NCBI GenBank assembly: GCA_963786145.1
Contig: CAWAYB010000002.1
Coordinates: 226,268-290,267 of the forward strand
DNA from: an uncultured Chloroflexia bacterium
GTDB lineage: Bacteria > Chloroflexota > Anaerolineae > Promineifilales > Promineifilaceae
Length of the DNA stretch: 64,000 nucleotides
Direction of reading: 5' to 3'
The translations under genes and the position numbers were made by a program. Below are positions 1 to 64,000 of this stretch, one piece after another. How positions within the stretch are numbered: the stretch's first letter is position 1; each line of letters begins with the position of its first letter. The notes below the pieces were generated by a model. The model saw only the letters and a list, made by a program, of their open reading frames with translations, was not told the origin of the DNA and did no database searches.

Positions 1-499
1 AGCCTTGATCTCCGCTTTGGGCACCGGCGTCGGTGAATCCTTCGACCTCACTAACCTGCGTTATGGGCGCGTCATCATCATGACCGATGCCGACGTAGAC
101 GGCAGTCATATCCGCACCTTGCTGTTGACCTTCTTCTTCCGCTATATGACCGAACTGATCGAAGAAGGGCATCTCTTCATCGCCCAACCTCCCCTGTATG
201 CGGTCAAGGAAGGCAAACAAATCCACTATACATACACGGAAGCGGAGAATGCCGCCTTGCTAAAGTCTCTGCAGGGCAAGAAGTACTCCCTGCAGCGCTA
301 CAAGGGTTTGGGCGAGATGAATGCCCAGCAGCTCTGGGAAACGACCATGGATCCCAGCGTGCGCACCCTTCTGCAAGTTGCAGTGGAGGATGCCGTCAGC
401 GCCGACCGCACCTTTGACATGCTCATGGGCAGTGAAGTACCGCCGCGTCGGCGTTTCATTACCACCCATGCTGGTGAAGTACGGAATCTCGACGTATAG
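1..499 (+). CDS. gyrB: DNA gyrase subunit B, C-terminal ~165 aa (5' end outside the window)
   Basis: The frame of ORF 5..499 is open to the window edge. The translation has GyrB Toprim/C-terminal signatures ([34 protein letters not shown]). Confidence 0.9.
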
Positions 500-553
500 C
501 GTGAAGGATCCTATTTCAAGACTGGCCGCCTTGTAGGGTGGCCAGTTTCTCTC

Positions 554-1429
554 ATGAAAATCGCCGTGCTATCCGATATCCATGGCAACTTGCCCGCTTT
601 GGAAGCCGTGTCCGCCGATATTGCCCTCTGGTCACCCGACAAAGTGATCGTCAATGGAGATACAGTGAACCGTGGGCCGCTCTCTGGGGCTTGCCTGCGC
701 TATGTCCTCCAGCGGCGCGACAGCGTGGGTTGGGTGCTCCTGCGCGGCAACCATGAGGAGTACCTGCTGGAGTGTGCGCGGCCGGACTTCCCTACCTCCG
801 GACCGGATTTTGAGCTGAATCGTTTCGCCTACTGGGCCTACCAGCGGCTAAACGGTCAGGTCGGACAGCTGGCACATCTACCAACCAGGTTCACCTGGGT
901 AGCCCCCGACGGCCGTGAAATCCGTGTCGTCCATGCTGCCATGAACAGCAATCGCACGGGTCTCTACGAAGAACTAACCGACGATGAATTGATCGAGCGG
1001 ATAATCCCGGCGCCCGCAGTGTTTGTAACCGCCCATACGCATCAGGCGTTTGTGCGCCAGGTGCAAGGTACCTTGGTGGTGAATACGGGTTCGGTTGGAT
1101 CGCCGTTTGACCGGGATTGGCGTCCAAGCTACGGCCGATTCACCTGGGATGCCATTTCCGGCTGGCACGCAACGGTCGAACGGGTACTCTATGATCGCTC
1201 CGCCATCGAAGAGGACTACGTATCATCTGGCTTTCTCGCCGAAGGCGGACCGCTGGCGCAGCTCATGCTGGTGGAACTGCGCCGCTCAGGTGGTCTAATC
1301 TTTCGCTGGGCCTCGCGCTACCAAGAGGCCGTCCTTGACGGTTCCATCAGTCTCGAAGAAAGTGTGCATCGTATCTTGCTGGATGAAGATGTTCGGCCGT
1401 TTGTCGGCGCACCAGGCTGGGACATATAA
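554..1429 (+). CDS. Metallophosphoesterase (calcineurin-like phosphoesterase family)
   Basis: 291-aa ORF. N-terminus is MKIAVLSDIHGN..., followed by GDTVNRGP and GNHE motifs typical of the metallophosphoesterase fold. Confidence 0.75.
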   Translation: MKIAVLSDIHGNLPALEAVSADIALWSPDKVIVNGDTVNRGPLSGACLRYVLQRRDSVGWVLLRGNHEEYLLECARPDFPTSGPDFELNRFAYWAYQRLNGQVGQLAHLPTRFTWVAPDGREIRVVHAAMNSNRTGLYEELTDDELIERIIPAPAVFVTAHTHQAFVRQVQGTLVVNTGSVGSPFDRDWRPSYGRFTWDAISGWHATVERVLYDRSAIEEDYVSSGFLAEGGPLAQLMLVELRRSGGLIFRWASRYQEAVLDGSISLEESVHRILLDEDVRPFVGAPGWDI

Positions 1430-1568
1430 GGCCACTTCACAAGCATAGCCTTTGCTCTTCTTCCATTGCTGGAATCCGCCAACTATGATAAAAATTCACC
1501 AGGGATAAACACCTGGCCATCACTTTGCGCTTTCGTACGGAACGCAAGCCTCTCCGGGAGAAACAAGG

Positions 1569-3374: not shown

Positions 3375-4475
3375 ATGTACCAGCGAATCGTGGTCAAGAT
3401 CGGCACGAGCGTGCTTACGGGCGGGACCCCCTATCTCGATCGCCCGCGTATGGTCGAATTGGCCCGCCAGTGCGCCGAGCTGCACGGCCGTGGCAAAGAA
3501 ATCATCCTCTGCTCCTCCGGTGCCATCGCCGTCGGTCGCGAACGGCTTGGCTTCCCGGAATTAGCCCCGACCATCAGCAACAAACAGATGCTGGCCGCGG
3601 TCGGCCAGAGCCGCCTGATGCAGATGTGGGAACGGTACTTTGAAATCTATGGCCTCCATGTGGGCCAAATCCTGCTCACCCGCGGCGACGTGGAACATCG
3701 CGGCCGTTTTCTGAATGCTCGCGACGCTCTGCAAGCCTTGCTCGACCAGCGCATCGTGCCTGTCGTCAATGAGAACGACGCCATCACCACCGAAGAAATC
3801 AAAGTGGGAGACAACGACAATCTTTCTGCGCTGGTGTCGATCTTGACCGATGCTGACCTCCTCCTATTGCTTACAGATCAGCCGGGTCTATTCACGGCCG
3901 ATCCGCGCACCGACCCCGGAGCTCAACTAATCACCGAGGTAGTCAAGATCGACGAAACATTGCGCAAACTGGCCGGAACCAGCGTAAGCGGCTTGGGAGT
4001 CGGGGGTATGGCCACCAAGCTCCAGGCCGCCGATGTGGCTCGCCGTGCCGGCACCGACGTAATCATCGCCTCCGGCCACGCTCCCGACGTCATCATCGAA
4101 GCCGTGGCCGGAGACAGACGAGGTACCCATTTCCCGGCCCTCGAAAACCCATTGGAAAGCCGCAAACGCTGGATCTATGCCGGACCCAAAACATCTGGCT
4201 ACCTTGTGATCGACACGGGCGCCCAGACGGCCCTATGCGAACACGGCCGTTCACTCCTGCCTGCTGGCATCCTAAGCGTTCACGGCGACTTCCAGCGCGG
4301 TGATACCATCATGATTAAGAGCCATTCCGGTGAAATCCTTGCTCGTGGCATCACCCGCTATTCCAGCACCGATATGAAGCAGATCAGCGGCTGCCAATCG
4401 GATGAAATCGAGGGCCGACTTGGCTACGCCTATGGGCCGGTAGCCATCCATCGCAACGACTTGATCCTGGTATAA
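3375..4475 (+). CDS. proB: Glutamate 5-kinase with C-terminal PUA domain
   Basis: 366-aa ORF. It starts [12 protein letters not shown], has the amino-acid-kinase core ([22 protein letters not shown]), and lies directly upstream of proA. Confidence 0.9.
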
Positions 4476-12321: not shown

Positions 12322-15024
12322 TCAGGCTTTCTCCTGCATCACCGCCGCTTCAATCAGACCGGGTACGCTTCCCAGTGCCTGCGGCAGCTTTTCCGCATCC
12401 CGACCGCCCGCCTGGGCCAGGTTCGGCCGTCCCCCACCGCCGCCGCCGACAACACGCGCCACCTCGCGCACGAGATCGCCTGCCTTAACGCCTAGACTGA
12501 TCGCATCATCCGTCACCGCGGCAATGATTAACGGCTTGCCCTCGCTCACTGTCGCCAGCACCACTGCGCCCGAAGATACCTTGTCGCGGAACCAATCCGC
12601 CATCTCGCGCAGGATATCCACTCCGGCAACATCAACCTGCGCCACCAGCAGGTTAACGCCCGCGACTTGCTGTACCTGATCTAGCAACGTACCGAACTGG
12701 ATACGTGCCAGCTTGCGCTGCAGGTGCGCCTGTTCCTTCAACAGCGCTTTCTGCTCGCTCAGCAGCCCCTCCAGGCGCGCGACAGCCTCCCCGGCCGGAG
12801 AGTTCAGCATGTGCAGCAGCTCATCCAGCAGTTCCAGCCGCTGGCTCACAAGCGCCTGCGCCGCCGCTCCCGTAACCGCTTCGATCCGCCGCGTTCCTGC
12901 CGCCACCGCGCCTTCGCTGACCAACACAAATTGGCCGATATCATTGGTCTCCGAAACGTGCAGCCCGCCGCATAGTTCATAACTATATGCCTGTGGTCCG
13001 CTTTCTTCACCCACGCTGACCGTGCGCACGATCTCACCGTACTTCTCACCAAACAGGGCCATCGCCCCCTGGCTGATTGCTTCCTTCTGGCCCATGAAAT
13101 TGATCTTCACCGGCAAGTTCTGGGTGATTACATGGTTGATATCTGCCTCAATCGCCGCCAGGGTTGTGTCGTCCACAGCTTCGCCATGCAGAAAGTCAAA
13201 TCGCAAGCGATCCGGCGCCACCAGCGATCCCGCCTGCTGGACATGCGGACCGAGGTGCGCACGCAGCTCCTTATGCAGCAGGTGCGTTGCCGTGTGGTTG
13301 CGCCGAATGTTCCCCCGCCGCACATCATCAACCTCCAACACAACCTCATCTCCCAACGTCAAGCTGCCGGACAACATCTCGCCTCGATGTACTACTATGC
13401 CAGGCACAGGTTTGTGGGCGTCTAAGACTTGGAACACGGCCGTACCATCCGCCAGCAAGATCTGCCCCGTATCGCTCACCTCGCCACCCGCCTCCACATA
13501 AAATGGCGTCGCCGCCGTGATCAGTTCACCTTGTTCCCCGGGCCCAAGCTGCGAAACCAGCTCCCCTTCCTGCACCAAGCCCACCACCTCTGCGACCAGG
13601 CTCGCTCCTGTATAAGGATCGTACTCCACTCCGTCACCCAGCTGTCCGCTGGAGACTAATTCGCTCAGCAGCCCCGCGTACACCGAATCCTCGGTATCAT
13701 ACTTGCCAAAAGCGCCGGAGCCGCTCGCCAGCGCGTGCGCAGCCCGTGCTTCGTTATATCCCTGCACATCGATCGTCAACCCACGGCCATGGATCAGATC
13801 GCGCGTGATCTCCAACGGTAGCCCGTACGTCGCATAGAGCGAAAATGCCGTCTCCCCCGAGATCTCGGTTTCGCCACGCTCGCGCAAATCTTCATACACT
13901 TCCAGCAGCTGCACAATTGCCCTGTCCAGCGTGCGCGCAAAACGTGTCTCTTCCTGGGTCAAGGTGCGCAGGATATGCTCTCGGCGTTGGCGCAGTTCAG
14001 GGTAGACCTCACCCATCTCGTCGATATACACCTCCGCTATTTCGGCCAGGAATGGCTTCTGGAAGCCGATTTGGCGGCCGAAGCGGGCCGCGCGGCGGAT
14101 CAACATGCGCAAGACATAGCCCGCGCCAGTGCTGCCGGGCCGTACGCCGTCACCCAACAGAAAAGTAGCTGCACGGCCGTGATCCGCAATCACGCGGTAG
14201 CCGACATAATTCTCTTCTCGCTCCTCGTCCGTGTCCCCCAGCAGTTCCTGCACTCGATCTAGCGCGGGCAAGAATAGGTCCGTTTCATAGTTGGTTTCCA
14301 CGCCCTGCATGATCCGCGCCAATCGTTCGAAACCCATGCCCGTGTCCACCGATGGCTTGGGTAGCGGGGTCAGGCTGCCGTCCGCTTCGCGATTGAATTG
14401 CATGAACACTAGGTTCCAAAACTCGAGGAACTCCTCATCGTCATCCGCATTCAGACGTGCCGGGTCGCAGCTCTGCATGTCGCCAATATAATAGAAAATC
14501 TCTGAATTCGGGCCGCACGGTCCCGTCTCGCCCATTTCCCAGAAATTGTCCTTCTTGCCAAAGCGCAAGACCTTCTCCGCCGGCAAATACTTCTGCCACA
14601 GTTCGAACGAGTCATCATCATCCGTATAAATGGTGGCCCACAAACGGTCCGGTTCCAGCTCCAATACGCCGGTCACGAACTGCCAGGCGAGGTCAATGGC
14701 GCCTTCTTTAAAATAGTCGCCAAAGGAAAAATTACCCAGCATTTCAAAAAACGTGTGGTGGCGCGGCGACGGCCCTACGTTTTCCAGGTCATTATGTTTG
14801 CCGGTCACACGCATACATTTCTGCGACGTCGTCGCGCGAGAATACGGCCGTTTCTCTTTCCCCAGGAACACATCCGCAAACTGGTTCATACCCGCGTTGG
14901 TAAAGAGCAGTGTAGGGTTGTCGTGCAGCGGCAGCGGCGCGCTGTCCACAATCTCATGCCTATGCTCCTCAAAGAACTCCAGAAACGCCCGCCGCAGTTC
15001 ACTACTTGTCGTTGGTTTCATCAT
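12322..15024 (-). CDS. alaS: Alanine--tRNA ligase
   Basis: 900-aa ORF with a class II AlaRS N-terminus (FLEFFEEHRHEIV...FTNAGMNQF), the editing-domain HxxxH motif (HTATHLLH) and a C-terminal DHHA1-like GGGGGRPNLAQAGG. Confidence 0.95.
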   Translation of the reverse strand: MMKPTTSSELRRAFLEFFEEHRHEIVDSAPLPLHDNPTLLFTNAGMNQFADVFLGKEKRPYSRATTSQKCMRVTGKHNDLENVGPSPRHHTFFEMLGNFSFGDYFKEGAIDLAWQFVTGVLELEPDRLWATIYTDDDDSFELWQKYLPAEKVLRFGKKDNFWEMGETGPCGPNSEIFYYIGDMQSCDPARLNADDDEEFLEFWNLVFMQFNREADGSLTPLPKPSVDTGMGFERLARIMQGVETNYETDLFLPALDRVQELLGDTDEEREENYVGYRVIADHGRAATFLLGDGVRPGSTGAGYVLRMLIRRAARFGRQIGFQKPFLAEIAEVYIDEMGEVYPELRQRREHILRTLTQEETRFARTLDRAIVQLLEVYEDLRERGETEISGETAFSLYATYGLPLEITRDLIHGRGLTIDVQGYNEARAAHALASGSGAFGKYDTEDSVYAGLLSELVSSGQLGDGVEYDPYTGASLVAEVVGLVQEGELVSQLGPGEQGELITAATPFYVEAGGEVSDTGQILLADGTAVFQVLDAHKPVPGIVVHRGEMLSGSLTLGDEVVLEVDDVRRGNIRRNHTATHLLHKELRAHLGPHVQQAGSLVAPDRLRFDFLHGEAVDDTTLAAIEADINHVITQNLPVKINFMGQKEAISQGAMALFGEKYGEIVRTVSVGEESGPQAYSYELCGGLHVSETNDIGQFVLVSEGAVAAGTRRIEAVTGAAAQALVSQRLELLDELLHMLNSPAGEAVARLEGLLSEQKALLKEQAHLQRKLARIQFGTLLDQVQQVAGVNLLVAQVDVAGVDILREMADWFRDKVSSGAVVLATVSEGKPLIIAAVTDDAISLGVKAGDLVREVARVVGGGGGGRPNLAQAGGRDAEKLPQALGSVPGLIEAAVMQEKA

Positions 15025-16660: not shown

Positions 16661-17614
16661 TCATTCGTCTTGAGGGTGTTGCCGGTACCAGTTTACCGTT
16701 GCCGCAATAGCTTCCGGCAGTGGAGTCGGCCTCAACCCAAACGTACCCTCAAAGTCCGAACTGTCAACGACATACGGCTTCTCAAAGGAATATGCCATTT
16801 CGACGGACTCCCTCGCCTCTGGAATGAACAAGCCTGCCAGACGCAGCATCGTCTTGCTGAGGCTGCTCACTTTCGGCGCAGTGCCCAATTCCCTGAAGAC
16901 CAGCTCCGCAAACGCACGCTTGGTAATGTCAGGCTGATCATTAGGCACATGCCAGGCGCGTCCAAAGCCCCGCTCATCCCCACCAAGGATGACCATAGCC
17001 CGGCCAAAGTCGCCGATGAAGGTGTTGGTATGCGGCAGGTCTGCATCTCCCATCACTTGCGCGGATTTACCGGCCAGCGCCGGATAGAAGAGGCGCTCGC
17101 CTACGGCCGAATCAAGCGCCCAGGGTCCAAAGAAGTCCGATCCTCGGGCGATAGTCACTGGCAGCTTGCCCGCTTGATGGGCCGCAAGGGCTTCTTCCGC
17201 CATCTGGGCGCGCACCCGCCCCTTGCGCGTCTGCGCCGCATACGGCAGGTCTTCGGAAATACGGCCGTTGACCGGACCATACATGTACAGGTTATCACCT
17301 ATCACCAGCCGCGCTCCACTGGCCGCCGTACCATTCAAGATCGCAGCCTGCATTGGCGGGAACTTCTCCGCCCACTCCGTATAACCCGGCTGGGCGCACT
17401 GGTAGACCACAGCCGCATCACTCGTCAACTCAACCACATTTGCTTCGTCGTAGGCATCACCGGCCACGATCTGGACCACGTCGGATGCCTCCGCCATATA
17501 CCCGCTCCGATTGACCATCCGCACCGCTTCCCCGCGCACCATCAACTCTTCCATGACCGATCGACCAAGCGGTCCCGTACCAAAAACAACATGAACCTTT
17601 TTCTCAATTGCCAT
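16661..17614 (-). CDS. NAD(P)-dependent epimerase/dehydratase-family (extended SDR) protein
   Basis: Rossmann motif VHVVFGTGPLGRSV near the N-terminus; ~317 aa. Start taken at MAIEKK (alternative at 17632). Confidence 0.75.
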   Translation of the reverse strand: MAIEKKVHVVFGTGPLGRSVMEELMVRGEAVRMVNRSGYMAEASDVVQIVAGDAYDEANVVELTSDAAVVYQCAQPGYTEWAEKFPPMQAAILNGTAASGARLVIGDNLYMYGPVNGRISEDLPYAAQTRKGRVRAQMAEEALAAHQAGKLPVTIARGSDFFGPWALDSAVGERLFYPALAGKSAQVMGDADLPHTNTFIGDFGRAMVILGGDERGFGRAWHVPNDQPDITKRAFAELVFRELGTAPKVSSLSKTMLRLAGLFIPEARESVEMAYSFEKPYVVDSSDFEGTFGLRPTPLPEAIAATVNWYRQHPQDE

Positions 17615-18653: not shown

Positions 18654-18702
18654 CTGGACATTGTAGCAAACAACCGAACGGCCGTGCCATGGTCGCGCGT
18701 GC

Positions 18703-21864: not shown

Positions 21865-21930
21865 CTGCGACGAACGGCCGTTTGCAGGACCACTCGCTCA
21901 TCTTTTCCGTTCTGTCATGCAGTTTCCTGC

Positions 21931-40997: not shown

Positions 40998-41640
40998 CCT
41001 GCTTCTGGTAGACGATCACGCCGTGGTGCGCTCGGGATTGCGGTTGCTTCTGGACGCCCAGGAAGACATGCACATAGTCGGCGAGGCAGAAACGGGGCAA
41101 GAGGCGCTGCGGTTGGTGGCTACTTTGCAGCCTGATATCGTCCTGATGGACATCAAGATGCCGGACATGAATGGGATCGAGGCAACGGCGGTTATCAAGG
41201 AACGTCATCCCAACACGGCCGTGCTGGCTCTCAGCATGTATGAAGACGACCAGTACTTTTTCGAAATGCTCAAAGCCGGCGCTTCCGGCTATATTCCCAA
41301 ACGTGCCGCCCCCGACGACCTGGTTCACGCCATCCGTACCGTCAGTAAGGGAGACGTCTTTCTATACCCGACCCTTGCCAAACGGCTCGTGCAGGATTAC
41401 CTCCGGCGCGTCGAGGCGGGGGAAGAGCTGTTCCATGACGACCTGACACCGCGGGAAAGAGAGGTTCTGGCTCTCATCGCCGAAGGCTATTCCAACAACG
41501 AGATCGCCGAAACTCTCGTGATCAGTTCCAAGACCGTGGAACGCCACCGCGAAAACATCATGCGTAAACTGGATTTGCACAGCGGCATCGCACTGGTCAA
41601 ATATGCGATCAAGATAGGTCTGATCGACCTCGACGACTAA
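40984..41640 (+). CDS. Response regulator, NarL/FixJ (LuxR-type HTH) family
   Basis: TTG at 40984 follows GAAGGAAGGA. Receiver domain (ISLLLVDDHAVVR...IVLMDIKMPDMNG) plus a C-terminal LTPREREVLALIAEGYSNNEIAETLVISSKTVERH. Overlaps the kinase stop. Confidence 0.85.
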   Translation: MEKISLLLVDDHAVVRSGLRLLLDAQEDMHIVGEAETGQEALRLVATLQPDIVLMDIKMPDMNGIEATAVIKERHPNTAVLALSMYEDDQYFFEMLKAGASGYIPKRAAPDDLVHAIRTVSKGDVFLYPTLAKRLVQDYLRRVEAGEELFHDDLTPREREVLALIAEGYSNNEIAETLVISSKTVERHRENIMRKLDLHSGIALVKYAIKIGLIDLDD

Positions 41641-45545: not shown

Positions 45546-45908
45546 TCTCACAAGAATGAGGAAGCAGAACAGATATAGTGTAGCAAGACGGTCGTGTGGG
45601 GTAAATCAGGGATTGAGCCTATCCGTGGCTGGGGTCATGGCCCCTTCTTGGGCCACGTTTTGGGTAGCGCAGGCTGCAACCAGCCCAAAATTTGCCGGCC
45701 GGCCGTTCGCCTACCCACGCCCCCTGGGCGATATACCCCACTTCGTGGCCGAAAATCGACTTCTAGAGCTCGAATCATAGGCGCCGGTGGCTCGCGCCTT
45801 TCCGGCGATACCCCATAGAAGAATGGTTTCTTTACCCGATAGACCGGGGCAGACGGCCGTATTATGCTTTACTCAAGCAAATAAGTTTGAGGAAACGCAA
45901 TTGTTTGC

Positions 45909-46235: not shown

Positions 46236-48473
46236 CTAGCTTTCCGGCGCAGCAATCTCAGCCCGTGTCATACCCGCTGTGCTGCCACCAATGTTGGCCA
46301 GCGAGTCGTACAGTAGTTGTAACACGTAGTCTGCGTTATGCGCAAAAGCGCCAGGGTCCTTGGCTGTGTACTGGTAGTTGTAGGCGGCACGAAGCAATTT
46401 GGGCGTCCAGGTATTGAAACCATTTTCGCGATTGACCTCATCCGCGTCTGCAACACCGTCACCGTTCAGGTCTGTGAAGAAGTACGGGTAAGCCGACGGC
46501 GACCAGATGATGCCGCTACCAACCGTGTTAACGGCATAGGCCTGCATCGCCGCGTACAATGCTTCACGCATCGTATCCACTTCGCCGGCAATACCTTCTT
46601 CTACATCACCGTCACCGTCATAGTCGACCTCGCTCACACGAATGCTCGTCAGGTCATCCTTGACTTCGACACCCTCATGGCAATCACCGCATTCTTCAAC
46701 TACAACTTCCAACTCGTGAACGCTGTGACATTCGGTGCAGGTGTCAAACCCAGGCACGTGCTCGTTGCGACCGCTGTATTCCTGCCCGTCATACTGGTAT
46801 CCACCCTGCGCCTCGCTCCCGAAGAGCGTCGCGCCGGCGGCAAAGTAGTGGACATTCAGGAAACGCAGCGCATCTGATTGCTCATCGTCCGTCAACTCGC
46901 CAATCAAGCGATTCACGCTGACGGTAGATTCACGTCCTTGATGGCAGTTGATGCAAAGATTGCTGCCCGGATCGTCAAGCGAAAGCATAGCGCCGCTGGG
47001 GAACTGTACCTGCTCAAACTCGTAGATGGAGTAATCTTCCAAGTTGCTGTGACAGGTGGCACAGTTCAAACCGTTGGCCGGATGCTGTGAGATGGCTACG
47101 CCTTCCGTTGCATACAACGGCAGGCCGGCAGCGGAGTGGCACTTGCTGCAAGAGCCGGGCACCATTCCATCCTCATCCCAATGACGGAACGCCTCTTCTG
47201 AACCGGCGAAATGACCATGATCGATGCGTCTGGCATTGGTCAGATCAATCGGTTCAGCAATCGCTCCATTCAGATCCTCAATGGAGTCATAGAGCAGCTG
47301 GATGATATACTTTCCGCCATGCGCGAACCGGCCCGGATCCTTCAGCGATACCTGGAAGTTGTAAGCCGCTTTTGTCAGGCGCGGTGACCAGGCATTGTAC
47401 GCATTATCGAAGACAGCCTCATCCTCACCGGCTTCACCGTCCCCATTCCCGTCAATGAAGAAATAGGGATAGCTGGCCGCGTTATAGGCGATCGGCGTTC
47501 CGGTCACTTCTGTGGCATAGGCCTGCATTGCTGCATACAGCATGTCACGCATGCCTTCTATCTCGTAGTAGATACCTTCTTCGATGTCCCCGTCACCGTC
47601 ATAGTCAACGAGGGAGCCATTCATGCGCACGTCCACGAAATCGTCGACGGTTTCTACGCCTTCATGGCAGGATTGGCAATCTGCTACTTGGACTTCCAGC
47701 GTGTGCGGATCGTGGCAGGAATTACAGGTGTTGAACCCTTCCACATGGTCAAAACGGGCATCGTAGGACTTGCCGTCATATTCGAAGCCACCTTTGGCCA
47801 ACGTTCCATATTGCGTCGCTGCCGCAGCATAGTAGTGGATATTGGAGAATCCAAGATCCTCACTTACGGCATCAGGCGAATCGACCATGCCGGCCTCTTC
47901 GATTTTGGCGTTGACGCTGACCGTCGATTCCCGGCCCTGATGGCACTGCATGCAGCGGGCCTCAGCCCCAAGACCGGTGAGTTCAATACCGGAGGGCATG
48001 ACCACGCTGGTCATATTGAAGGTGCCTTCGTTATGGCAGGCTTCGCAGGTAACCGTGGTGCCGATGGGGGCGGGATTATCTACAACACCCGCTTCTGTGC
48101 CGTCAGCACCTACATAGTCCAGATATCCAGGCGTGCTGTGGCACTTGGCACAGGACGTGGGAACTTCTGCAGGATCGTCTTCGTTCCAATGGACAAATGC
48201 TTCCGCTTCGGCGTCATTGTGCGGGGATGCTGCCCATTGTTCCTCGAACGGGACCACATCCACGGCCGTTTCCGGCTCCATCATCACTTCTACGACACGC
48301 GTCACCTCAACCTGCACCTCCGGCCCAGGTACTTGAACCTCGGCGCCCGGTATTTCTACGACACGCGTCACTTCGACGGTCTGCGGTTCTTGGCTGCATG
48401 CCACTACCACAAGACTTAATAGTAGCAGCGTGCCCAAGAGCAGGAAATACCGTCTCTTCGGACAACACTTCAT
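46236..48473 (-). CDS. Decahaem cytochrome c lipoprotein with internal duplication (2 x pentahaem unit)
   Basis: AGGAGG RBS; lipobox LVVVAC. Ten CxxCH motifs: CAKCH, CEACH, CMQCH, CNSCH, CQSCH / CSKCH, CATCH, CINCH, CTECH, CGDCH. Each half also carries DYDGDGD(I/V)EEGI and QLLYDS motifs. Confidence 0.85.
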   Translation of the reverse strand: MKCCPKRRYFLLLGTLLLLSLVVVACSQEPQTVEVTRVVEIPGAEVQVPGPEVQVEVTRVVEVMMEPETAVDVVPFEEQWAASPHNDAEAEAFVHWNEDDPAEVPTSCAKCHSTPGYLDYVGADGTEAGVVDNPAPIGTTVTCEACHNEGTFNMTSVVMPSGIELTGLGAEARCMQCHQGRESTVSVNAKIEEAGMVDSPDAVSEDLGFSNIHYYAAAATQYGTLAKGGFEYDGKSYDARFDHVEGFNTCNSCHDPHTLEVQVADCQSCHEGVETVDDFVDVRMNGSLVDYDGDGDIEEGIYYEIEGMRDMLYAAMQAYATEVTGTPIAYNAASYPYFFIDGNGDGEAGEDEAVFDNAYNAWSPRLTKAAYNFQVSLKDPGRFAHGGKYIIQLLYDSIEDLNGAIAEPIDLTNARRIDHGHFAGSEEAFRHWDEDGMVPGSCSKCHSAAGLPLYATEGVAISQHPANGLNCATCHSNLEDYSIYEFEQVQFPSGAMLSLDDPGSNLCINCHQGRESTVSVNRLIGELTDDEQSDALRFLNVHYFAAGATLFGSEAQGGYQYDGQEYSGRNEHVPGFDTCTECHSVHELEVVVEECGDCHEGVEVKDDLTSIRVSEVDYDGDGDVEEGIAGEVDTMREALYAAMQAYAVNTVGSGIIWSPSAYPYFFTDLNGDGVADADEVNRENGFNTWTPKLLRAAYNYQYTAKDPGAFAHNADYVLQLLYDSLANIGGSTAGMTRAEIAAPES

Positions 48474-52715: not shown

Positions 52716-52746
52716 GCAAAAACGGCTGTCGAAACAGACGGCCGTT
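52716..52746 (-). terminator. Intrinsic terminator after NrfD-like gene of module 2
   Basis: The minus strand reads AACGGCCGTC-TGTTTC-GACAGCCGTT followed by TTTTTG (one mismatch in the 10-bp stem). Located 46 nt past the stop at 52792. Confidence 0.55.
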
Positions 52747-54024: not shown

Positions 54025-54025
54025 A

Positions 54026-54850
54026 TCAGACTTCCTCCAACGCTGGCCGTACATAATGGACTTTGGGCTGCGTGCCAAAATCCTCGCGCAACACAAAGGT
54101 GTCGTTATCTTCCAGGAAGCGCGAAATCGGGCTTTCCACATCGTTAAAGTCCCCAAAAACGCGCGCGCCGACCGGGCAGATGTTGACGCAAGCCGGTGTT
54201 ACCTGTGGATCGACCCCAGGCTTGAGGCCGTACTCCACAGCCCGGTCAATACGCTGCACGCAAAAGGTACATTTTTCAACCACACCACGCGGCCGCCGTT
54301 CCACTTCGGGCGTGCCCCAGGTCGGAACATATTCGTTTTCTTCTGTGCTTTGCTTCCAGTTAAAACGGCGTACGTCGTATGGGCAGGCAACCTCGCAATA
54401 GCGGCAGCCGATGCAGCGATCATAGTCCATCGCCACCAGCCCGTCTTCGCGCACCCAGGTTGCACCTACGGGGCACACTTTGACACACGGCGCTTCCTGG
54501 CAGTGCAGACACGGCCGTGTCATGAAGAAATCTGTCGCGTTCTCCGTGCGCTCGTCAAACCCGACATTCCAGCGCATATCGTCTTCCGGCACATCATTGA
54601 CAGCCTGGCAAGCCCACAGGCAATATTGGCAGCCGATGCACTTGGACAAATCAATGCCCATATGCCATTGATTGGCCGAACTCGCCTCCGTCTCGCGTGA
54701 CAAACCCTCGATCGCCTCGGCCGACAACGGTCCGCCGGAGAAAAGCTGTGAGACAACCACGGCCGCGCCGGTCACCCCGGCGATCTTCAGAACATCGCGA
54801 CGGCTCAGAAGCGCGGTGCCATCCTTTTTCTCCCCATCACCTTTCGTCAT
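54026..54850 (-). CDS. Tat-exported 4x[4Fe-4S] ferredoxin subunit, NrfC/PsrB family (module 2)
   Basis: Twin-arginine signal LLSRRDVLKIAGVTGAAVV. Cys clusters CIGCQYCLWAC, CLHCQEAPCVKVCP, CIGCRYCEVACP and CTFCVQR...CVNICP. Confidence 0.9.
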   Translation of the reverse strand: MTKGDGEKKDGTALLSRRDVLKIAGVTGAAVVVSQLFSGGPLSAEAIEGLSRETEASSANQWHMGIDLSKCIGCQYCLWACQAVNDVPEDDMRWNVGFDERTENATDFFMTRPCLHCQEAPCVKVCPVGATWVREDGLVAMDYDRCIGCRYCEVACPYDVRRFNWKQSTEENEYVPTWGTPEVERRPRGVVEKCTFCVQRIDRAVEYGLKPGVDPQVTPACVNICPVGARVFGDFNDVESPISRFLEDNDTFVLREDFGTQPKVHYVRPALEEV

Positions 54851-55988: not shown

Positions 55989-56933
55989 TCATGGTGAAGG
56001 AAGCGCATTCCGTTTCAGGGCCGCATTTGCTTCCTGCTGTGCAATCTCTCGGGCAATAAACTCCCAGAACGCTTCCTGAGCACCCGTTGCCGGCTTGCGC
56101 TTCTGGTAGCCGATGTGAATGTCGCGATAGATGTCGAGGCCACGGACGTTCACATGAGCTACACGGCCGTCGACCAACCTGGACACCACAATTTGAGAGA
56201 CGAAGCCAACCCCCAAACCCTCCTTCACAGAGAGTGCAATTGCCTCCGAACTTCCCAGAATGAGCATGGTGTCTAGATCTTCGATGTCCAGGCCAACGCT
56301 GGTCAGCCCCCTGCGCACCGCTGATTCAGTTCCCGAGCCTTCTTCTCTGAAAATGAATTCAGCCTCCAACAGTTCCGCTGGCTCAATTTCACCCCGGTCT
56401 GCCCACGGGTGATCTGCCGGAGCAATGAGAATTACCGGGTCAATCGTGAACCGGCGCGTCTCAACCGAGTTGCAGATCATGAACGGCTCACTGACCATCG
56501 CGATATGAACCTCGCCATCACACAGCATTTCAAATGCTTGCCCCTGCGAAGTCACGTTACACGATACACGCACCAACGGGAATTGACGGTGAAAACTGGC
56601 CAACAGCTGTGGCAAGATATATTTGCCTGGTGTCGTACTGCACCCCACTAACAAATGCCCGTGCACTTCGCCTTCCAGAGATTTCATCGTTTCCACAATT
56701 TGCACCGATCGCTCCACCATATCGCGCGCCAGGGGTAGCAGTGCCATTCCTGCTTCGGTCAGTTCCATATGCCGGCCCGAACGGTTAAACAGAGTCTGCC
56801 CGAGATTGAGCTCGAGAGACTGGATGTGCTGGCTTACGCTGGGCTGACTCATATGGAGCAGGCGCGCTGCCTGCGTGAAATTCAAGGTTTCCGCGGCGAC
56901 AAGAAACACATTAAGCTGGTGGGTATCTAACAT
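55989..56933 (-). CDS. LysR-family transcriptional regulator
   Basis: Start at MLDTHQLNVFLVAAETLNFTQAARLLHMSQPSVSQHIQSLE (classic LysR HTH), followed by a substrate-binding domain. Confidence 0.85.
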   Translation of the reverse strand: MLDTHQLNVFLVAAETLNFTQAARLLHMSQPSVSQHIQSLELNLGQTLFNRSGRHMELTEAGMALLPLARDMVERSVQIVETMKSLEGEVHGHLLVGCSTTPGKYILPQLLASFHRQFPLVRVSCNVTSQGQAFEMLCDGEVHIAMVSEPFMICNSVETRRFTIDPVILIAPADHPWADRGEIEPAELLEAEFIFREEGSGTESAVRRGLTSVGLDIEDLDTMLILGSSEAIALSVKEGLGVGFVSQIVVSRLVDGRVAHVNVRGLDIYRDIHIGYQKRKPATGAQEAFWEFIAREIAQQEANAALKRNALPSP

Positions 56934-57109: not shown

Positions 57110-57169
57110 GGCGGTGCAGAATTTTGTGGTGGTCGCCCCGCTAGTCTCGATGGAAGTAAGGAGAGCACA

Positions 57170-58735: not shown

Positions 58736-58764
58736 GGTAAGCATACCCATTGAGGAGAAATGCA

Positions 58765-61428
58765 ATGAGAAAGTCTACTTTGTTCACGTTCATTCTGCTG
58801 TTGGGGCTGCTTCTTGCAGCCTGTGGCGGCTCCGCCGCCACAGCGCCGGATGCGGCTGCACCTGCGGCCACGGCCGTTGCGGAAGTTGTCGAAGAAGCTG
58901 TCGCTGAAGCAGAACCCGTCGTAGAAGAACCAGTAGTCGAGGAACCGGCGGCCGAGCCGGAAGCCGAAATGCCCGCCGAGACAGGCGCCGCTGATCTGGA
59001 TACCGCCTATGCAGCCTTCCTGGGCGGGATGGAAGCCTATAACACCATCGGCATTGACGAAGTCAACGAAATGATCGCCGAGGGCAACGCCCCCTTCTTG
59101 CTGGACGTCCGCGAACCCGGCGAACTGACCGAGAACGGCTGGATCGAAGGCGCGGTCAATATCCCGCTGCGTGAAGTCGCTAACAGCATCGCCTATTTGC
59201 CCAGCTTTGACACCCCCATTGTGAGCTATTGCGGCAGCGGTTGGCGCTGCACCATCGCCCTGACCGCGCTCGAAGCTCTGGGTTGGCAGGACGTGAAGGG
59301 TCTCAAAGGCGGCAGCTTCGGTGGCTGGGTGGAAGCCGGCTACCCGATCGCCGAAGGCGAAATCCCCACGCTCGTCGAACTCAACGCCGCCGAACCTGAT
59401 CCGGCTCTCCTAGCTGCTATGCAAGAAATGCTCAGCGAGGTACCGGAGGGCTTCGGCGTCATCACTGACGAACAGCTCGATACAGAGCTGGTAGAAAACC
59501 CTGATCTGATAGTCATCGACGTGCGGACCCCCGCAGAGGTCGAGGAGCAGGGCTATATGGACGCGCCCAATCTGCTGTTCATTCCTCTGGAAGAGTTTGT
59601 CGCCAGCCAGGATATGTGGCCCGCGGAAAAAGACGCGCCCATCGTGGTCTACTGTGGCAGCGGCCACCGTTCCACCATCGCCATGAGCATCCTCTGGTCC
59701 TATGGCTATACCGACGTACGCAGCCTCAAAGGTGGCTTTAGCGAATGGGCCGCCGCCGGCTACCCGTCCGTGGACGTTCCCGAAACGGCCGTGGGTGAAG
59801 GCAGCCCGCTGAATCCAGGTTTTGTCACATTCCTTGCGGGCATGGAAGCCTACAACACAATTGGTCTGGAAGACGTGAGCCTGGCACTTGCCGAAGACCC
59901 ACCCCCCTTCCTGCTTGACGTTCGTGAACCGGGCGAAATCGAAGAAAACGGTTATATCGAAGGCGCGGTCAACATTCCCCTGCGTCAGGTTGCCGACAAC
60001 ATCGCCTACCTGCCCAGCTTTGACACCCCCATTGTCAGCTACTGCGGCAGCGGTTGGCGCTGCACTATTGCCCTTACCATTCTTGAAGGCATGGGCTGGG
60101 AGAATGTGACCGGCCTTAAGGGCGGCAGCTTCGGTGGCTGGGTTGACGAAGGATACCCGGTGGCCGAAGGCCTGCCCCTGGAGCCAATGGAATTGAACGC
60201 GGCCGATCCCGATCCGGTACTCGTCGCCGCTGCCCAGGAAACGCTGAGCAACGTGCCCGACGGCTTCGGCGTCATTACCGTCGATGATCTCAACACTGCC
60301 ATTGTGGAAAACCCGGACTTGATCCTGATCGATGTGCGCACCCAGGAAGAAGTAGAGAAGAATGGCTATATCGATGCGCCAAATGTTCTCTTCATCCCTC
60401 TGGAGGAGTTCATTGCCGACCAGGACATGTGGCCCGCCGACAAAGACGCGCCGATCGTGACCTACTGTGGCAGCGGCCATCGCTCCACGATTGCCATGAC
60501 CATCCTCTGGGCCAACGGCTACAGCGACGTACGGAGCATGAAAGGCGGGTTCAACGAATGGACCGCCGCAGGCTATGCCACAGTGGGAGCGCCTGAAGCC
60601 GGGGAGACCGAGACAGCTTCTGCCCCCGTCGATCTGGACGCCGCCTTCGCCACTTTCCTGGCCGATATGGAAGTGTATAACACGATTGGCCTGGAAGATC
60701 TGAACCTGGCCCTGATCGAAGACCCGCCGCCGTTCCTGCTTGATGTGCGCGAGCCAGCGGAACTGGAAGAAAACGGGTACATCGAAGGCGCGGTCAACAT
60801 TCCATTACGTGAGGTTGCCGACAATATCGCTTACTTGCCCAGCTTTGATACGCCCATCGTAAGTTACTGTGGCAGCGGCTGGCGCTGCACCATCGCCCTT
60901 ACAGCCCTCGAAGCGATGGGTTGGCAGGATGTTAAGGGTCTGAAGGGCGGCAGCTTCGGCGGCTGGGTCGAAGAAGGGTACCCCTTCGTGGAAGGCCTGC
61001 CGTTGGAGCCGGTTGAACTGAATGCGGCCGATCCTGACCCGGCCCTTGTAGCCGCCATGCGGGAAATGCTGCAAAACGTTCCTGACGGTTTTGGTGGAAT
61101 TTCCGCCGATGATCTGAATCTGGCCATCATCGAAAACCCTGACTTGATCGTAATCGATGTGCGCACCGATGAGGAAGTGGCCGAAGACGGCATCATCGAA
61201 GCCGAAAACTGGATTCACATTCCTTTGGAATCCTTCATCGAGGAGATGGACCAATGGCCGGCTGACAAAGATGCTTCTATCGTCATCTATTGTGGCAGCG
61301 GACATCGTTCCACGATCGCCATGAGTATCCTATGGTCCTACGGCTACACGGATGTGAGCAGCCTGAAGGGTGGTTTCAGCGCCTGGGAAGCCGCCAGCTA
61401 CCCCGTTGCTGAATTCGCAGCTCCGTAA
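58765..61428 (+). CDS. Lipoprotein with six rhodanese domains (three tandem two-domain units)
   Basis: ATG at 58765 follows GAGGAG; lipobox LLAAC. Active-site loops CGSGWRC (x3) alternate with CGSGHRS (x3). Confidence 0.85.
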   Translation: MRKSTLFTFILLLGLLLAACGGSAATAPDAAAPAATAVAEVVEEAVAEAEPVVEEPVVEEPAAEPEAEMPAETGAADLDTAYAAFLGGMEAYNTIGIDEVNEMIAEGNAPFLLDVREPGELTENGWIEGAVNIPLREVANSIAYLPSFDTPIVSYCGSGWRCTIALTALEALGWQDVKGLKGGSFGGWVEAGYPIAEGEIPTLVELNAAEPDPALLAAMQEMLSEVPEGFGVITDEQLDTELVENPDLIVIDVRTPAEVEEQGYMDAPNLLFIPLEEFVASQDMWPAEKDAPIVVYCGSGHRSTIAMSILWSYGYTDVRSLKGGFSEWAAAGYPSVDVPETAVGEGSPLNPGFVTFLAGMEAYNTIGLEDVSLALAEDPPPFLLDVREPGEIEENGYIEGAVNIPLRQVADNIAYLPSFDTPIVSYCGSGWRCTIALTILEGMGWENVTGLKGGSFGGWVDEGYPVAEGLPLEPMELNAADPDPVLVAAAQETLSNVPDGFGVITVDDLNTAIVENPDLILIDVRTQEEVEKNGYIDAPNVLFIPLEEFIADQDMWPADKDAPIVTYCGSGHRSTIAMTILWANGYSDVRSMKGGFNEWTAAGYATVGAPEAGETETASAPVDLDAAFATFLADMEVYNTIGLEDLNLALIEDPPPFLLDVREPAELEENGYIEGAVNIPLREVADNIAYLPSFDTPIVSYCGSGWRCTIALTALEAMGWQDVKGLKGGSFGGWVEEGYPFVEGLPLEPVELNAADPDPALVAAMREMLQNVPDGFGGISADDLNLAIIENPDLIVIDVRTDEEVAEDGIIEAENWIHIPLESFIEEMDQWPADKDASIVIYCGSGHRSTIAMSILWSYGYTDVSSLKGGFSAWEAASYPVAEFAAP
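58990..61428 (+). repeat. Tandem triplication (~815-bp unit) inside the rhodanese gene
   Basis: Units start near 58990, 59810 and 60628. The protein repeats align almost residue for residue (AYNTIG...FLLDVREPGE...NIPLR(E/Q)VA(N/D)(S/N)IAYLPSFDTPIVSYCGSGWRCTIALT...). Confidence 0.85.
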
Positions 61429-61495: not shown

Positions 61496-61554
61496 ATCTC
61501 CCGTTGCCTCGCTCAGTCCCTGTTCATAAACTCGCTGGACCCCGGCGCTTAGGG

Positions 61555-61560
61555 TATAAT
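61555..61560 (+). promoter_or_regulatory. Consensus -10 hexamer (TATAAT) upstream of gyrA; no convincing -35
   Basis: TATAAT at 61555-61560, about 155 nt upstream of the proposed gyrA start. Confidence 0.25.
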
Positions 61561-61714
61561 TGGGGACAATGTAACAGCTATTTTCACCATGAAAATTCGC
61601 CCATCCTGATGGTGAGATCCCGCACCAAGTTTGTCAGAAACACAAGGATAGGAAAACACCCGTCACGGCCGACAGCCCCACAAATAGCGGCTGGCAAGTG
61701 GCAGGGAGGTTGGC

Positions 61715-64000
61715 TTGGAAATCGGTACGGTAAACAACATCGATATTGACGAGGAAATGCGCACATCGTACCTCGATTACGCCATGAGCGTCATCGTCGC
61801 GCGCGCGCTGCCCGATGCCCGCGATGGGCTTAAGCCGGTACACCGGCGCATTCTCTATGCCATGTACGACATGGGCATCCGTCACAATACTCCCCACCGC
61901 AAAAGCGCCCGTATTGTTGGTGAAGTGCTGGGCAAGTACCACCCCCATGGGGATACATCCGTCTATGACGCTATGGTGCGCATGGCCCAGGATTTCTCCA
62001 TGCGCTACATGCTGGTTGACGGTCAGGGAAACTTCGGCAGTATTGACGGCGACAGCGCCGCCGCTATGCGTTACACCGAAGCGCGGCTGGCCCGCATTTC
62101 CAATGAGCTGCTTGAAGACATAGACAAAGACACCGTCGATTGGGGAGCTAACTTCGATGACAGTCTGCAAGAGCCTGACCTGCTGCCTGCGCGCCTGCCC
62201 AATCTCCTGCTCAACGGCTCTTCGGGCATCGCCGTGGGTATGGCGACAAACATCCCGCCCCACAACCTTGCCGAAATCAGTGATGCCCTGATCTATCTAA
62301 TCGATCGGCAGGACGACGCTGACGAAGTTACTCTGGACGAGTTGATGGAGTTTGTCAAAGGCCCGGACTTTCCTACCGGCGGCATCGTGGTTGGCACCGA
62401 GGGGATTCGTAACGCCTTTGCCACCGGACGCGGCCGTATTATCATTCGCGCCGTAGCCACCATTGAAGAAAACCCGCGCCATCCCGGTCGCCAGCAGATC
62501 AACGTCACTGAGCTGCCCTTCCAGGTCAACAAGTCGCTGCTCATTGAACGCATCGCCGAACTGGTGAACAAGGGCGTCCTTTCCGATATATCGGACCTGC
62601 GCGACGCCTCCGACAGGCGTGGCATTTCCATCGTCATCGAGCTGAAACGCGGCACCCAACCCATGAAAGTGCTCAACCAGCTCTACAAACACACCAGCCT
62701 GCAAACCACCTTCGGCGTGCAGATGTTGGCCCTGGTTGACCGCCAACCGCGCCTGCTTTCCCTGAAACGCGCGCTGCAAATCCATATCGACCACCGCATA
62801 GAGGTTATTACCCGGCGCACTCGTTTCGAAATGGACAAAGCGCTGGCCAGACAACACATCCTGGAGGGCCTGCTCATCGCCCTGGATAATCTGGACGAAG
62901 TGATCAGGACCATTCGTGAATCCGAAAGTGTTGATGATGCGCGCGCCAGCCTGATGGCCGATTTCAACCTCAGTGAACTGCAAGCAAACGCCATCCTCGA
63001 TACCCAGTTGCGCCGCCTTGCCGCCATGGAACGGCAGAAGATCGTAGATGAACATCGGGAGATTTCCGAGCATATTGTCTATCTCCGCAGCCTCCTTGCC
63101 GATCAAAAGCTGATTCTTGGCCTCATCAAAGAAGACTTGGCAGCGCTGAAAGATAGTTATGGCGATGCGCGCCGAACCGAAATCGCCGTTGGCATGGATG
63201 CAGACTTCAATATGGAAGACCTCATCCGTGACGAAGATGTGTTTATTTCTATTACCAGACGCGGCTATGTGAAACGCACTCCCGTCGCCGCCTATCGCAA
63301 ACAGGCACGGGGTGGGAAAGGTCTGATTGGCATGAGCACGCGCGGCGAGGATGAACTGGAGCACCTCTTCTCGGCGGGAACGCTGAACAGCATTCTCTTC
63401 TTCTCCGACTACGGTAAGGTCTATTCGATCAAGGCCTACGAAATTCCGGAAATGGACCGTACCGCCAAGGGCAACTCGCTCATGAACATCCTGCCCCTGA
63501 TGCCGGAGGAGAAGATCACGGCCGCGCTGCCCGTCCACAGCTTTGAAGACGCTCAGTATCTGACCATGATTACACGCAAAGGCAGGATCAAGCGCGTCGG
63601 CATCGAAGCATTCGAGAAAGTGCGCCCAAGCGGTCTGATAGCTCTTTCCCTGGATGATGATGACCGACTAGGTTGGGTAAAGTTGACCCATGGCGAACAG
63701 GATCTGATCATCGTCAGCGAACAGGGCAAAGGCATCCGCTTCAGCGAAGAAGATGTGCGCGAAATGGGGCGTGGAGCGGCCGGTGTGAACGCTATGCGCC
63801 TGGACACCTGGGATAATATCGCCGGGGCTGATGTGGTTGAGCCTGGTGACGACCTCTTCGTCATTACAGAAAAAGGCTATGGCAAGCGCACTGACCTTGA
63901 CGAATACCGCCAGCAAAATCGCTATGGCCAGGGTGTTCGCGCGATGATCCTTGATCCCCAGCGCACGGGCAAAATCGTCGGCGCGCGGGTTGTAGCCAGC
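61715..64000 (+). CDS. gyrA: DNA gyrase subunit A, N-terminal 762 codons (3' end outside the window)
   Basis: Not in the ORF track because there is no stop inside the window. My hand translation from TTG at 61715 (AGGGAGG lies 5 nt upstream) gives ...[36 protein letters not shown]...[26 protein letters not shown]. The frame stays open to 64000. Confidence 0.9.

Follow-up and report, generated by a model that had tools for sequence, protein, structure and literature searches.

Why should a single eight-base palindrome recur dozens of times in a stretch of bacterial DNA in which one or two copies would be expected by chance? The question is raised by 64,000 bases from an uncultured Chloroflexia bacterium of the Promineifilaceae (contig CAWAYB010000002.1, positions 226,268 to 290,267; hereafter the window), in which a preliminary description made by eye had tallied 46 copies of the octamer ACGGCCGT and likened them to the cyanobacterial element HIP1 (highly iterated palindrome 1, GCGATCGC). 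Judged from sequence, ACGGCCGT appears to be a HIP1-type highly iterated palindrome (HIP) of a family-level, Promineifilaceae-like clade of Chloroflexota, showing every HIP property that was examined here. That the phenomenon is real and clade-wide we regard as close to certain.

Abundance in the window and in related genomes

An exact search returned 46 copies in the window (719 per Mb, at 57.2% G+C), 45 of them exactly where the eye had placed them and one at 14844, which had been mistyped as 14854. Markov models of order 0, 1, 2, 3, and 4 predict 1.6, 1.2, 1.8, 3.3, and 5.5 copies, respectively, base or dinucleotide models giving 1.2-1.8, and the order-1 observed-to-expected ratio (O/E) is 38, or roughly 40-fold above chance. 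Models of order 5 and 6 predict 17 and 40 copies, near the observed count because they are built from sub-words (6- and 7-mers) of ACGGCCGT itself, and were therefore set aside as uninformative nulls. The excess was further supported by 100 dinucleotide-preserving shuffles, which gave 1.20 ± 1.10 copies with a maximum of 5, and by the runner-up palindromic octamer, which occurs 10 times. Variants matching seven of the eight positions, as had been claimed, are also present (ACGGCCGA 11 times, ACGGCCGC 12, TCGGCCGT 8, and GCGGCCGT 7).

Relatives of the window were identified through AlaS, the closest being 84% identical, the next 76-77%, and the remainder 64-75%. Those that carry names are Candidatus Promineifilaceae, Candidatus Leptofilum, Ardenticatenaceae, and Anaerolineae or Chloroflexota metagenome-assembled genomes, for which the NCBI taxonomy gives Chloroflexota, Ardenticatenia, Promineifilales; a metagenome scan with AlaS added two short close relatives and no more. 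Gene order around alaS is kept in the relatives (proB-proA-HD-TPR/SLT-...-mltG-ruvX-alaS-PTPS_related-...-PMT_2-GT4), and each was sampled through one syntenic region of about 22 kb around this gene. The comparison with related genomes that the preliminary description had proposed shows ACGGCCGT to be the top palindromic octamer in 10 related loci, each of 65% AlaS identity or more, at 529-2334 per Mb and an order-1 O/E of 34-140, and to be absent or weak in a high-GC Promineofilum-like group and in outgroups:

L161, motif-rich, AlaS identity 84%, 36 copies
L162, motif-rich, AlaS identity 76%, 12 copies
L163, motif-rich, AlaS identity 76%, 16 copies
L001, motif-rich, AlaS identity 69%, 50 copies
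L168, motif-rich, AlaS identity 69%, 45 copies
L165 (Ca. Leptofilum), motif-rich, AlaS identity 68%, 39 copies
L166, motif-rich, AlaS identity 67%, 45 copies
L002 (43% G+C), motif-rich, AlaS identity 67%, 9 copies in 12 kb
L289, motif-rich, AlaS identity 66%, 35 copies
L290, motif-rich, AlaS identity 65%, 53 copies
L167 (Ca. Promineofilum sp., 70% G+C), unenriched, 2 copies
L291 (67% G+C), unenriched, 5 copies
L081, unenriched, 1 copy
L083, L003, and L004, unenriched, 0-1 copies

Although locus L002 (JBCCFD010000085.1) has just 43% G+C, its density of the GC-rich octamer is 0.75 per kb, for an O/E of about 110, which indicates that ACGGCCGT is held against the genome's own compositional drift. 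When AlaS is analysed by neighbour joining, the motif-rich genomes group together as a single clade, and the high-GC, motif-poor Promineofilum-like group is nested inside it; this suggests one gain and one loss, tentatively, as the tree is of a single gene.

Coding context of the copies

Could the abundance reflect what the proteins require rather than the DNA? Genes were called by a home-made longest-open-reading-frame rule and then corrected through synteny and Pfam. With the corrected calls, 24 copies lie in phase 0, where they encode Thr-Ala-Val (TAV), 9 in phase 1 (xGRx), 6 in phase 2 (xRPx), and 7 outside confident genes, as follows (strand given at the first copy in a gene where assigned; "conserved" and "also in" refer to the related loci listed above):

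909..916, metallophosphoesterase gene, phase 1 (DGRE)
3484..3491, proB, phase 1 (HGRG)
4243..4250, proB, phase 1 (HGRS), conserved in L161 and L163
5928..5935, HD-domain gene, phase 0 (TAV), conserved in L161 and L163
7260..7267, TPR/SLT transglycosylase gene (minus strand), phase 0 (TAV), also in L162, L163, L001, and L168
8634..8641, TPR/SLT gene, phase 0 (TAV), conserved in L161
10137..10144, Peripla_BP_6 gene (minus strand), phase 0 (TAV), conserved in L161 and L162
10254..10261, Peripla_BP_6 gene, phase 0 (TAV), also in L161, L163, L001, and L165
11210..11217, mltG (minus strand), phase 2 (QRPF), conserved in L161
13436..13443, alaS (minus strand), phase 0 (TAV)
14173..14180, alaS, phase 1 (HGRA), also in L161, L162, L163, and L290
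14844..14851, alaS, phase 2 (KRPY), common to 8 of the 10 motif-rich genomes compared
17261..17268, no convincing gene, within an insertion, near an rve integrase-like gene
18678..18685, non-coding
18770..18777, PTPS_related membrane-protein gene (minus strand), phase 0 (TAV)
19097..19104, PTPS_related gene, phase 0 (TAV)
20123..20130, PTPS_related gene, phase 0 (TAV)
20270..20277, PTPS_related gene, phase 0 (TAV)
21874..21881, non-coding
23789..23796, LysM gene (minus strand), phase 0 (TAV), conserved in L161 and L162
24591..24598, PMT_2 glycosyltransferase gene (minus strand), phase 0 (TAV)
25896..25903, PMT_2 gene, phase 0 (TAV)
25925..25932, PMT_2 gene, phase 1 (NGRE), conserved in L161 and L162
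26828..26835, GT4 glycosyltransferase gene (plus strand), phase 1 (HGRA)
27142..27149, GT4 glycosyltransferase gene, phase 0 (TAV), conserved in L161
31702..31709, cytochrome c gene (minus strand), phase 0 (TAV)
32271..32278, 179-aa zinc-ribbon gene (minus strand), phase 1 (NGRG)
32585..32592, 179-aa zinc-ribbon gene, phase 2 (ARPL)
33413..33420, non-coding
34211..34218, ccmF/nrfE (minus strand), phase 1 (DGRL)
37817..37824, DinB_2 gene (plus strand), phase 0 (TAV)
37896..37903, GCV_T folate-binding gene (plus strand), phase 0 (TAV)
38193..38200, GCV_T gene, phase 0 (TAV)
38403..38410, GCV_T gene, phase 0 (TAV)
40187..40194, sensor histidine kinase gene (plus strand), phase 2 (TRPS)
40541..40548, sensor histidine kinase gene, phase 2 (LRPS)
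41215..41222, LuxR-type response regulator gene (plus strand), phase 0 (TAV)
43161..43168, NrfD gene (minus strand), phase 2 (ARPF)
43499..43506, the same NrfD gene as the copy at 43161, phase 0 (TAV)
45853..45860, non-coding
48262..48269, 745-aa multihaem cytochrome gene (minus strand), phase 0 (TAV)
52738..52745, non-coding
54511..54518, outside confidently called genes
56163..56170, LysR regulator gene (minus strand), phase 1 (DGRV)
58870..58877, six-rhodanese-domain gene (plus strand), phase 0 (TAV)
59785..59792, rhodanese-domain gene, phase 0 (TAV)

After position 59792 the window holds no further copy. The insertion mentioned in the list spans 15025-18702 (about 3.7 kb, between alaS and the PTPS_related gene), is without counterpart in the syntenic L161 and L162, and carries the rve integrase-like gene (15334-16485) and, after it, sequence in which no gene call is convincing.

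The codon-aware nulls were restricted to the 40 copies within called genes. Shuffling synonymous codons within each gene 1000 times, with protein and codon usage kept, left 5.25 ± 2.11 copies (maximum 13), and shuffling codon order left 1.84 ± 1.38; in locus L001, the synonymous shuffle gave 5.0 expected copies against 49 observed. The ratio thus remains well above 1 under the codon-aware nulls, the check by which the preliminary description had proposed that its own claim be judged. Its view that the octamer is not a peptide motif is likewise upheld, as copies occur in genes of both strands, in non-coding DNA, and in all three phases where at least two had been claimed, the cited examples (HGR in proB and TAV in the HD gene) being found as described. 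Pooled over the relatives, density is 1.32 per kb in coding and 1.06 per kb in non-coding DNA, with a flat profile along genes. The influence in fact runs from DNA to protein: Thr-Ala-Val occurs 29 times in the window proteins where amino-acid frequencies predict 8.9 (3.3-fold), and ACGGCCGTN is the spelling in 23 of these cases, even though ACG and GCC each account for just 37% of their amino acid's codons, so that ACGGCCGT distorts protein sequence through over-use of TAV.

These observations leave next to no room for the octamer being a by-product of codon usage or of codon-pair or peptide preference, or a dispersed mobile repeat such as a miniature inverted-repeat transposable element (MITE) or repetitive extragenic palindrome (REP). 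The preference for phase 0 (24 of 39 coding copies) is what such an origin would have in its favour, but it is contradicted by the two shuffle nulls (5.3 and 1.8 against 40), by the use of every phase, both strands, and non-coding DNA, by flanks that are unrelated beyond ±2 nucleotides and by alignments, presented below, that are ungapped at the sites. On these four lines of evidence the whole group was rejected; a MITE or REP assignment is further at odds with a conserved unit that extends only ±1-4 nucleotides and with 39 of the 46 copies lying inside genes, in frame with orthologues.

The unit under pressure

The preliminary description had pointed to the core CGGCCG/GGCC as an EagI/HaeIII-type target. 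The flanks of the hexamer (xCGGCCGy) were tabulated over 235 kb of pooled motif-rich chromosomal DNA:

A..T, observed 298, expected 3.6
A..A, observed 50, expected 4.4
T..T, observed 25, expected 4.0
A..C, observed 39, expected 6.8
G..T, observed 19, expected 6.6
Neither flank correct, about background, O/E about 1

With one correct flank CGGCCG reaches an O/E of about 4-11, and without the A or the T it stays near 1; the unit under pressure is thus the whole octamer and not the hexamer or GGCC, and the suggestion of an EagI/HaeIII-type core is not sustained. Variants differing at one position (one-offs) follow the same pattern, with an O/E of 1.7-8.5 on chromosomes and 3.6-10.3 on mobile-element loci for positions 1 and 8, and of 0.5-2.5 for interior positions. 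Interior transitions, in which a signature of 5-methylcytosine deamination was sought, range from 1.3 to 2.5, with no position prominent.

Beyond the octamer, lineages differ in their palindromic extension. In the window and L161, C precedes 46-47% of copies and A 29-31% (base -1, flanks symmetrised), giving M-ACGGCCGT-K, and CACGGCCGTG is found 10 times in the window, in agreement with the (A/C)...(G/T) extension noted earlier (C 46%, A 29%). A takes the -1 position in 58-67% of Leptofilum-group copies, where G is also enriched further out, at -3 and -4, and in 96% of L289 copies, making the element in L289 effectively the 10-mer AACGGCCGTT.

A different GGCC-containing palindrome, GGGCCC, is avoided: the window holds 9 copies against 18-30 expected, and 10 loci pooled hold 19 against 83 (order-3) or 139 (order-1), with 0-1 per 22 kb in most relatives. 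This scarcity is the classic signature of an ApaI-type restriction system, and it contrasts with the 34-140-fold enrichment of ACGGCCGT. That ACGGCCGT is itself a restriction target under avoidance is ruled out, the opposite being observed (O/E 38).

Conservation, turnover, and spacing of sites

Codon alignments of 15 syntenic genes from up to 9 genomes reveal a mosaic of shared and lineage-specific sites, with three sites in alaS held in common with L290, the deepest motif-rich branch. Where a genome lacks a site, its counterpart is an ungapped 8-mer with point changes, often a one-off (ACGGTCGT, ACGGCCGC, GCGGCCGT), and insertions were never seen; sites therefore arise and decay by substitution and not by insertion. 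The conservation at orthologous positions that the preliminary description had proposed as a check is evident between the window and L161, where 15 of 20 sites (75%) are identical compared with 9.7% of all aligned 8-mers, and where, with identical amino acids only, 15 of 15 sites are conserved compared with 19% of controls. Within pairs of the Leptofilum group, 57-89% of sites are conserved over a background of 13-15%, and towards the motif-poor L167 the figures are 0 of 5 and 0 of 10. Insertion sequences carried 0, 1, and 0 copies where 0.8, 1.4, and 2.1 were expected, the counts being very small. Copies once present thus persist at orthologous positions, synonymous sites included and even where the protein pays with altered residues. 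It is very probable that ACGGCCGT is maintained at the DNA level by selection or by a persistent drive.

The copies are also more evenly spaced than chance. Over pieces of 22-64 kb, the pooled coefficient of variation of normalised nearest-neighbour spacings is 0.778, whereas copies placed at random give 0.968 ± 0.055; in 2000 such simulations the observed value was never reached, and gaps that are very short or very long are both scarcer than expected.

Conservation and spacing bear on whether the drive needs a function at all. A neutral mutational ratchet, as already proposed for HIP1 (Elhai 2015, PMC4390886), would have a cytosine methyltransferase together with very-short-patch-like or methyl-directed mismatch repair turning near-cognate sequences into ACGGCCGT and restoring decayed copies, without any use to the cell. 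The point substitutions that separate sites from non-sites agree with it, and outer one-offs enriched 4-11 fold are what its intermediates should look like. However, it does not predict under-dispersed spacing, interior transition one-offs are neither depleted nor strongly enriched, and HIP1 itself has been argued to be conserved above neutral replenishment (Xu et al. 2018, PMC5861425). Even spacing together with conservation at synonymous sites favours selection for coverage over a purely neutral ratchet, which we consider unlikely, though a strong and persistent repair bias would also be compatible with both observations.

Even spacing would also suit a site bound by an abundant protein, nucleoid-associated or chromosome-organising, whose targets must lie at regular intervals, as would a palindrome with lineage-specific palindromic extensions, and a chromosome-structure role has been favoured for HIP1 (Xu et al. 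2018, PMC5861425). Such proteins, however, rarely need an exact 8-mer, and here interior one-offs are unenriched; nor would this role call for mobile elements to be so dense in sites, and an electrophoretic mobility shift assay in cyanobacteria found no HIP1-binding protein (bioRxiv 10.64898/2026.06.24.733823). We hold this role to be very unlikely.

Mobile elements

The IMG/VR database was scanned for two copies of ACGGCCGT 10-40 nucleotides apart, and a subset among the 120 matches listed proved very dense:

L186 (IMGVR_UViG_3300033417_000002), 49 copies in 13.2 kb
L235 (IMGVR_UViG_3300048592_001391), 47 copies in 13.2 kb, from a metagenome shared with L161
L169 (IMGVR_UViG_3300037515_000543), 44 copies in 14.7 kb

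The three belong to 40-100 kb contigs whose genes are of plasmid, conjugative-element, or phage type, and they carry 3-3.7 copies per kb; L183, L260, and L287 from the same database are likewise dense. Genes of L186 encode an FtsK/SpoIIIE-like ATPase, a lytic transglycosylase, an Ant anti-repressor, ParA, and RadC, and those of L169 an IstB/DnaC-like ATPase and a MUG113 (T5orf172) protein. We conclude that the clade's mobile elements, in loci picked for paired copies, are at least as rich in ACGGCCGT as its chromosomes. The flank signature of L169 is that of Leptofilum-group chromosomes, and this, like the fact that chromosomes and resident mobile elements are affected alike, is also what a neutral ratchet would give.

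Rich mobile elements further call to mind a Chi-like signal that attenuates a RecBCD/AddAB-type nuclease, here independent of orientation through its palindromy. Mobile elements benefit from host Chi, and even coverage would shield any DNA end. Known Chi sites, however, are asymmetric, skewed to the leading strand, and enriched only a few-fold, as against an O/E of 34-140 here, and we judge a Chi-like role highly improbable.

Relation to HIP1 and other iterated sequences

HIP1 was recognised about 30 years ago, and debate over what it does continues, with a methylation-linked repair ratchet, chromosome structure, and DNA uptake among the proposals. The two elements share a long list of properties: both are exact, GC-rich palindromic octamers that occupy all codon phases and non-coding DNA, spread by substitution and not by insertion, keep their orthologous sites above control octamers, and have been lost in some sub-lineages, tentatively so for ACGGCCGT. 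Their densities are alike, HIP1 reaching 300-2700 per Mb with an O/E of 55-228 (Elhai 2015, PMC4390886) and ACGGCCGT 529-2334 per Mb with an O/E of 34-140, where over-representation above 15-fold marks a HIP-type element. One-off variants of HIP1 cluster at positions 1 and 8 and palindromic extensions exist (Elhai 2015, PMC4390886), just as one-offs of ACGGCCGT concentrate at these positions and its extensions are lineage-specific. A periodicity of 10-90 kb is reported for HIP1, to which the under-dispersed nearest-neighbour distances of ACGGCCGT on 22-64 kb pieces may correspond. The HIP1 parallel of the preliminary description holds in density and O/E, lineage-wide spread, orthologous conservation, outer one-offs, and extensions, and perhaps in non-random spacing.

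The differences are equally clear. The core is CGGCCG in ACGGCCGT and CGATCG in HIP1, and since ACGGCCGT is without GATC, a Dam-type N6-methyladenine component is impossible, unlike in HIP1. The phylum differs (Chloroflexota against Cyanobacteria), and HIP1 has the cognate methyltransferases DmtA and DmtC, whereas none was found for ACGGCCGT in the window or in about 470 kb of motif-dense DNA. Cyanobacteria also have alternate HIPs, namely GGGATCCC, TCGATCGA, CAGGCCTG, GGCGCC, GCsGC, and rCCGGy (Elhai 2015, PMC4390886; Xu 2018, PMC5861425), each of which replaces HIP1 in a sub-lineage, reportedly with a matching methyltransferase (Elhai 2015, PMC4390886; bioRxiv 10.64898/2026.06.24.733823). 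Like ACGGCCGT, these show that the HIP phenomenon is not bound to one sequence; all are found within cyanobacteria, most are moderately abundant, and ACGGCCGT is not among them. A full-text literature search of about 8 million papers found ACGGCCGT solely in primers and constructs among the matches listed, and literature searches returned no report of iterated palindromes in Chloroflexota, nor of ACGGCCGT among the CGGCCG methylation motifs of metagenomes.

DNA uptake sequences (DUS) of Neisseria and uptake signal sequences (USS) of Pasteurellaceae occur about once per kb, prefer certain frames where they lie in coding DNA, and are both clade-specific and shared among relatives at conserved sites. 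A DNA uptake or kin-recognition role, in which a competence or transfer receptor prefers DNA carrying ACGGCCGT and recombination spreads the sites with methylation unneeded, would account for 0.5-2.3 copies per kb, the use of all frames with one preferred, conserved orthologous positions, even spacing, and the richness of the mobile elements, and recent HIP1 work points to transformation (bioRxiv 10.64898/2026.06.24.733823). Nevertheless, DUS and USS are asymmetric 9-12-mers with a known receptor, whereas the perfect palindrome suggests a dimeric enzyme or regulator; such sequences often stand as inverted pairs in terminators, and here chromosomal non-coding DNA is enriched over coding DNA neither in terminator-like inverted pairs nor in the motif itself. 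The 64-kb window contains no uptake receptor or competence gene. We regard an uptake role as quite unlikely. A further precedent is Dcm/Vsr very-short-patch repair, in which a methyltransferase and a site-specific mismatch endonuclease bias CCWGG frequencies in enterobacteria; that effect stays below about two-fold, as against 34-140 fold for ACGGCCGT.

Proposed reader and the search for its genes

The best overall explanation, to which we assign a probability of roughly 0.5, is that ACGGCCGT is a HIP1-type octamer that is read by a resident protein and selected as a self-mark. The reader would be a symmetric, dimeric protein that recognises this DNA sequence, and the HIP1 analogy points most readily to an orphan DNA methyltransferase accompanied by a repair or recombination activity. 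Sites, perhaps methylated, at intervals of 0.5-1.5 kb would identify DNA to the cell as its own during repair, recombination, and the acceptance of incoming DNA, and if cells do accept site-bearing DNA in this way, selection, possibly aided by biased repair, would create and keep the sites. That a methyltransferase is the reader is a tentative proposal, somewhat short of an even chance and drawn from the HIP1 analogy, and a role in recombination or DNA acceptance is, for now, doubtful.

Several points weigh against the self-mark explanation. NCBIfam and Pfam searches of the window genes found no DNA methyltransferase or nuclease gene. When about 470 kb of related, motif-dense DNA was scanned for signatures, C5 methyltransferases gave no hit and N6/N4 methyltransferases a single weak one, which matches no Pfam family (L263, 1784 aa). 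More broadly, the DNA examined yielded no methyltransferase, Vsr-type or other nuclease, or competence gene tied to ACGGCCGT. The bare CGGCCG core is unenriched, and a hexamer-specific EagI-type methylase alone is thus insufficient as an explanation. The function of HIP1 is itself debated, so that the analogy delivers no mechanism, and a strong, persistent repair bias without a selected function can also yield conservation above background. The relatives are represented by about 22 kb each, with gene calls from a simple caller of open reading frames, and the IMG/VR loci were chosen for paired copies, which biases their density upward. Neither a Vsr nor a Dcm homologue was found in the scanned 470 kb, and the lack of a methyltransferase or Vsr gene there counts equally against the neutral ratchet.

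One candidate reader was considered and dropped. The 367-aa product of L166 3551-4654 combines an EVE domain, a PUA-like module that reads modified bases, with a nuclease-type NmeDI_C domain known from precomputed annotation. Its family is very widespread (5899 hits, many of them near 70% identity) and, in metagenome contigs of Anaerolineae type, about 70% conserved; nothing was found to link it specifically to ACGGCCGT.

Other features of the window and its relatives

The window also contains, at 42499-58735, a big cluster of respiratory or extracellular-electron-transfer-type genes, which comprises six multihaem c-type cytochromes (with MtrC/MtrF-like, c7, and paired-CXXCH domains) together with two NrfD membrane subunits, one 4Fe-4S protein, and one protein resembling cytochrome b561; a LysR regulator lies in mid-cluster. 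It is followed at 58750-61428 by the gene for an 892-aa protein with six rhodanese domains arranged as near-identical tandem modules. The long minus-strand open reading frames at 61634-64000 have an odd composition and resemble antisense artefacts of a plus-strand gene that crosses the window end, which may, as a guess from the look of the antisense peptide, be dnaK. In the Leptofilum-group and Ardenticatenaceae-labelled relatives, a phage-baseplate-like Baseplate_J-domain gene lies directly downstream of alaS, a place that it does not occupy in the window, L161, L162, or L163:

L001, 12747-14306, Baseplate_J gene
L165, 12750-14327, Baseplate_J gene
L166, 15480-17096, Baseplate_J gene
L168, 12712-14310, Baseplate_J gene
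L290, 13168-14724, Baseplate_J gene

Significance

ACGGCCGT looks like a second, independent case of a HIP1-like signal, in another phylum and with another sequence. In practical terms, it is a strong compositional marker for binning wastewater and environmental Chloroflexota of this clade, and it could serve to assign plasmids and phages to Promineifilaceae-like hosts. A bolder and rather unlikely proposition is that a HIP-type signal arose independently in Chloroflexota with its own octamer-specific methylase or reader, and that a kin tag shared by chromosomes, plasmids, and phages governs DNA acceptance, repair, and recombination. A second palindrome of different sequence in an unrelated phylum would mark the phenomenon as convergent and independent of GATC/CGATCG methylases, and the clade would offer a second lineage, with a natural loss in the Promineofilum-like group, in which the machinery may be sought by phylogenetic profiling, the candidates being genes common to HIP-rich cyanobacteria and motif-rich Promineifilaceae and missing from the motif-poor sub-lineage. 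If this proposition is true, HIPs would be a general, convergent bacterial strategy rather than a cyanobacterial oddity.

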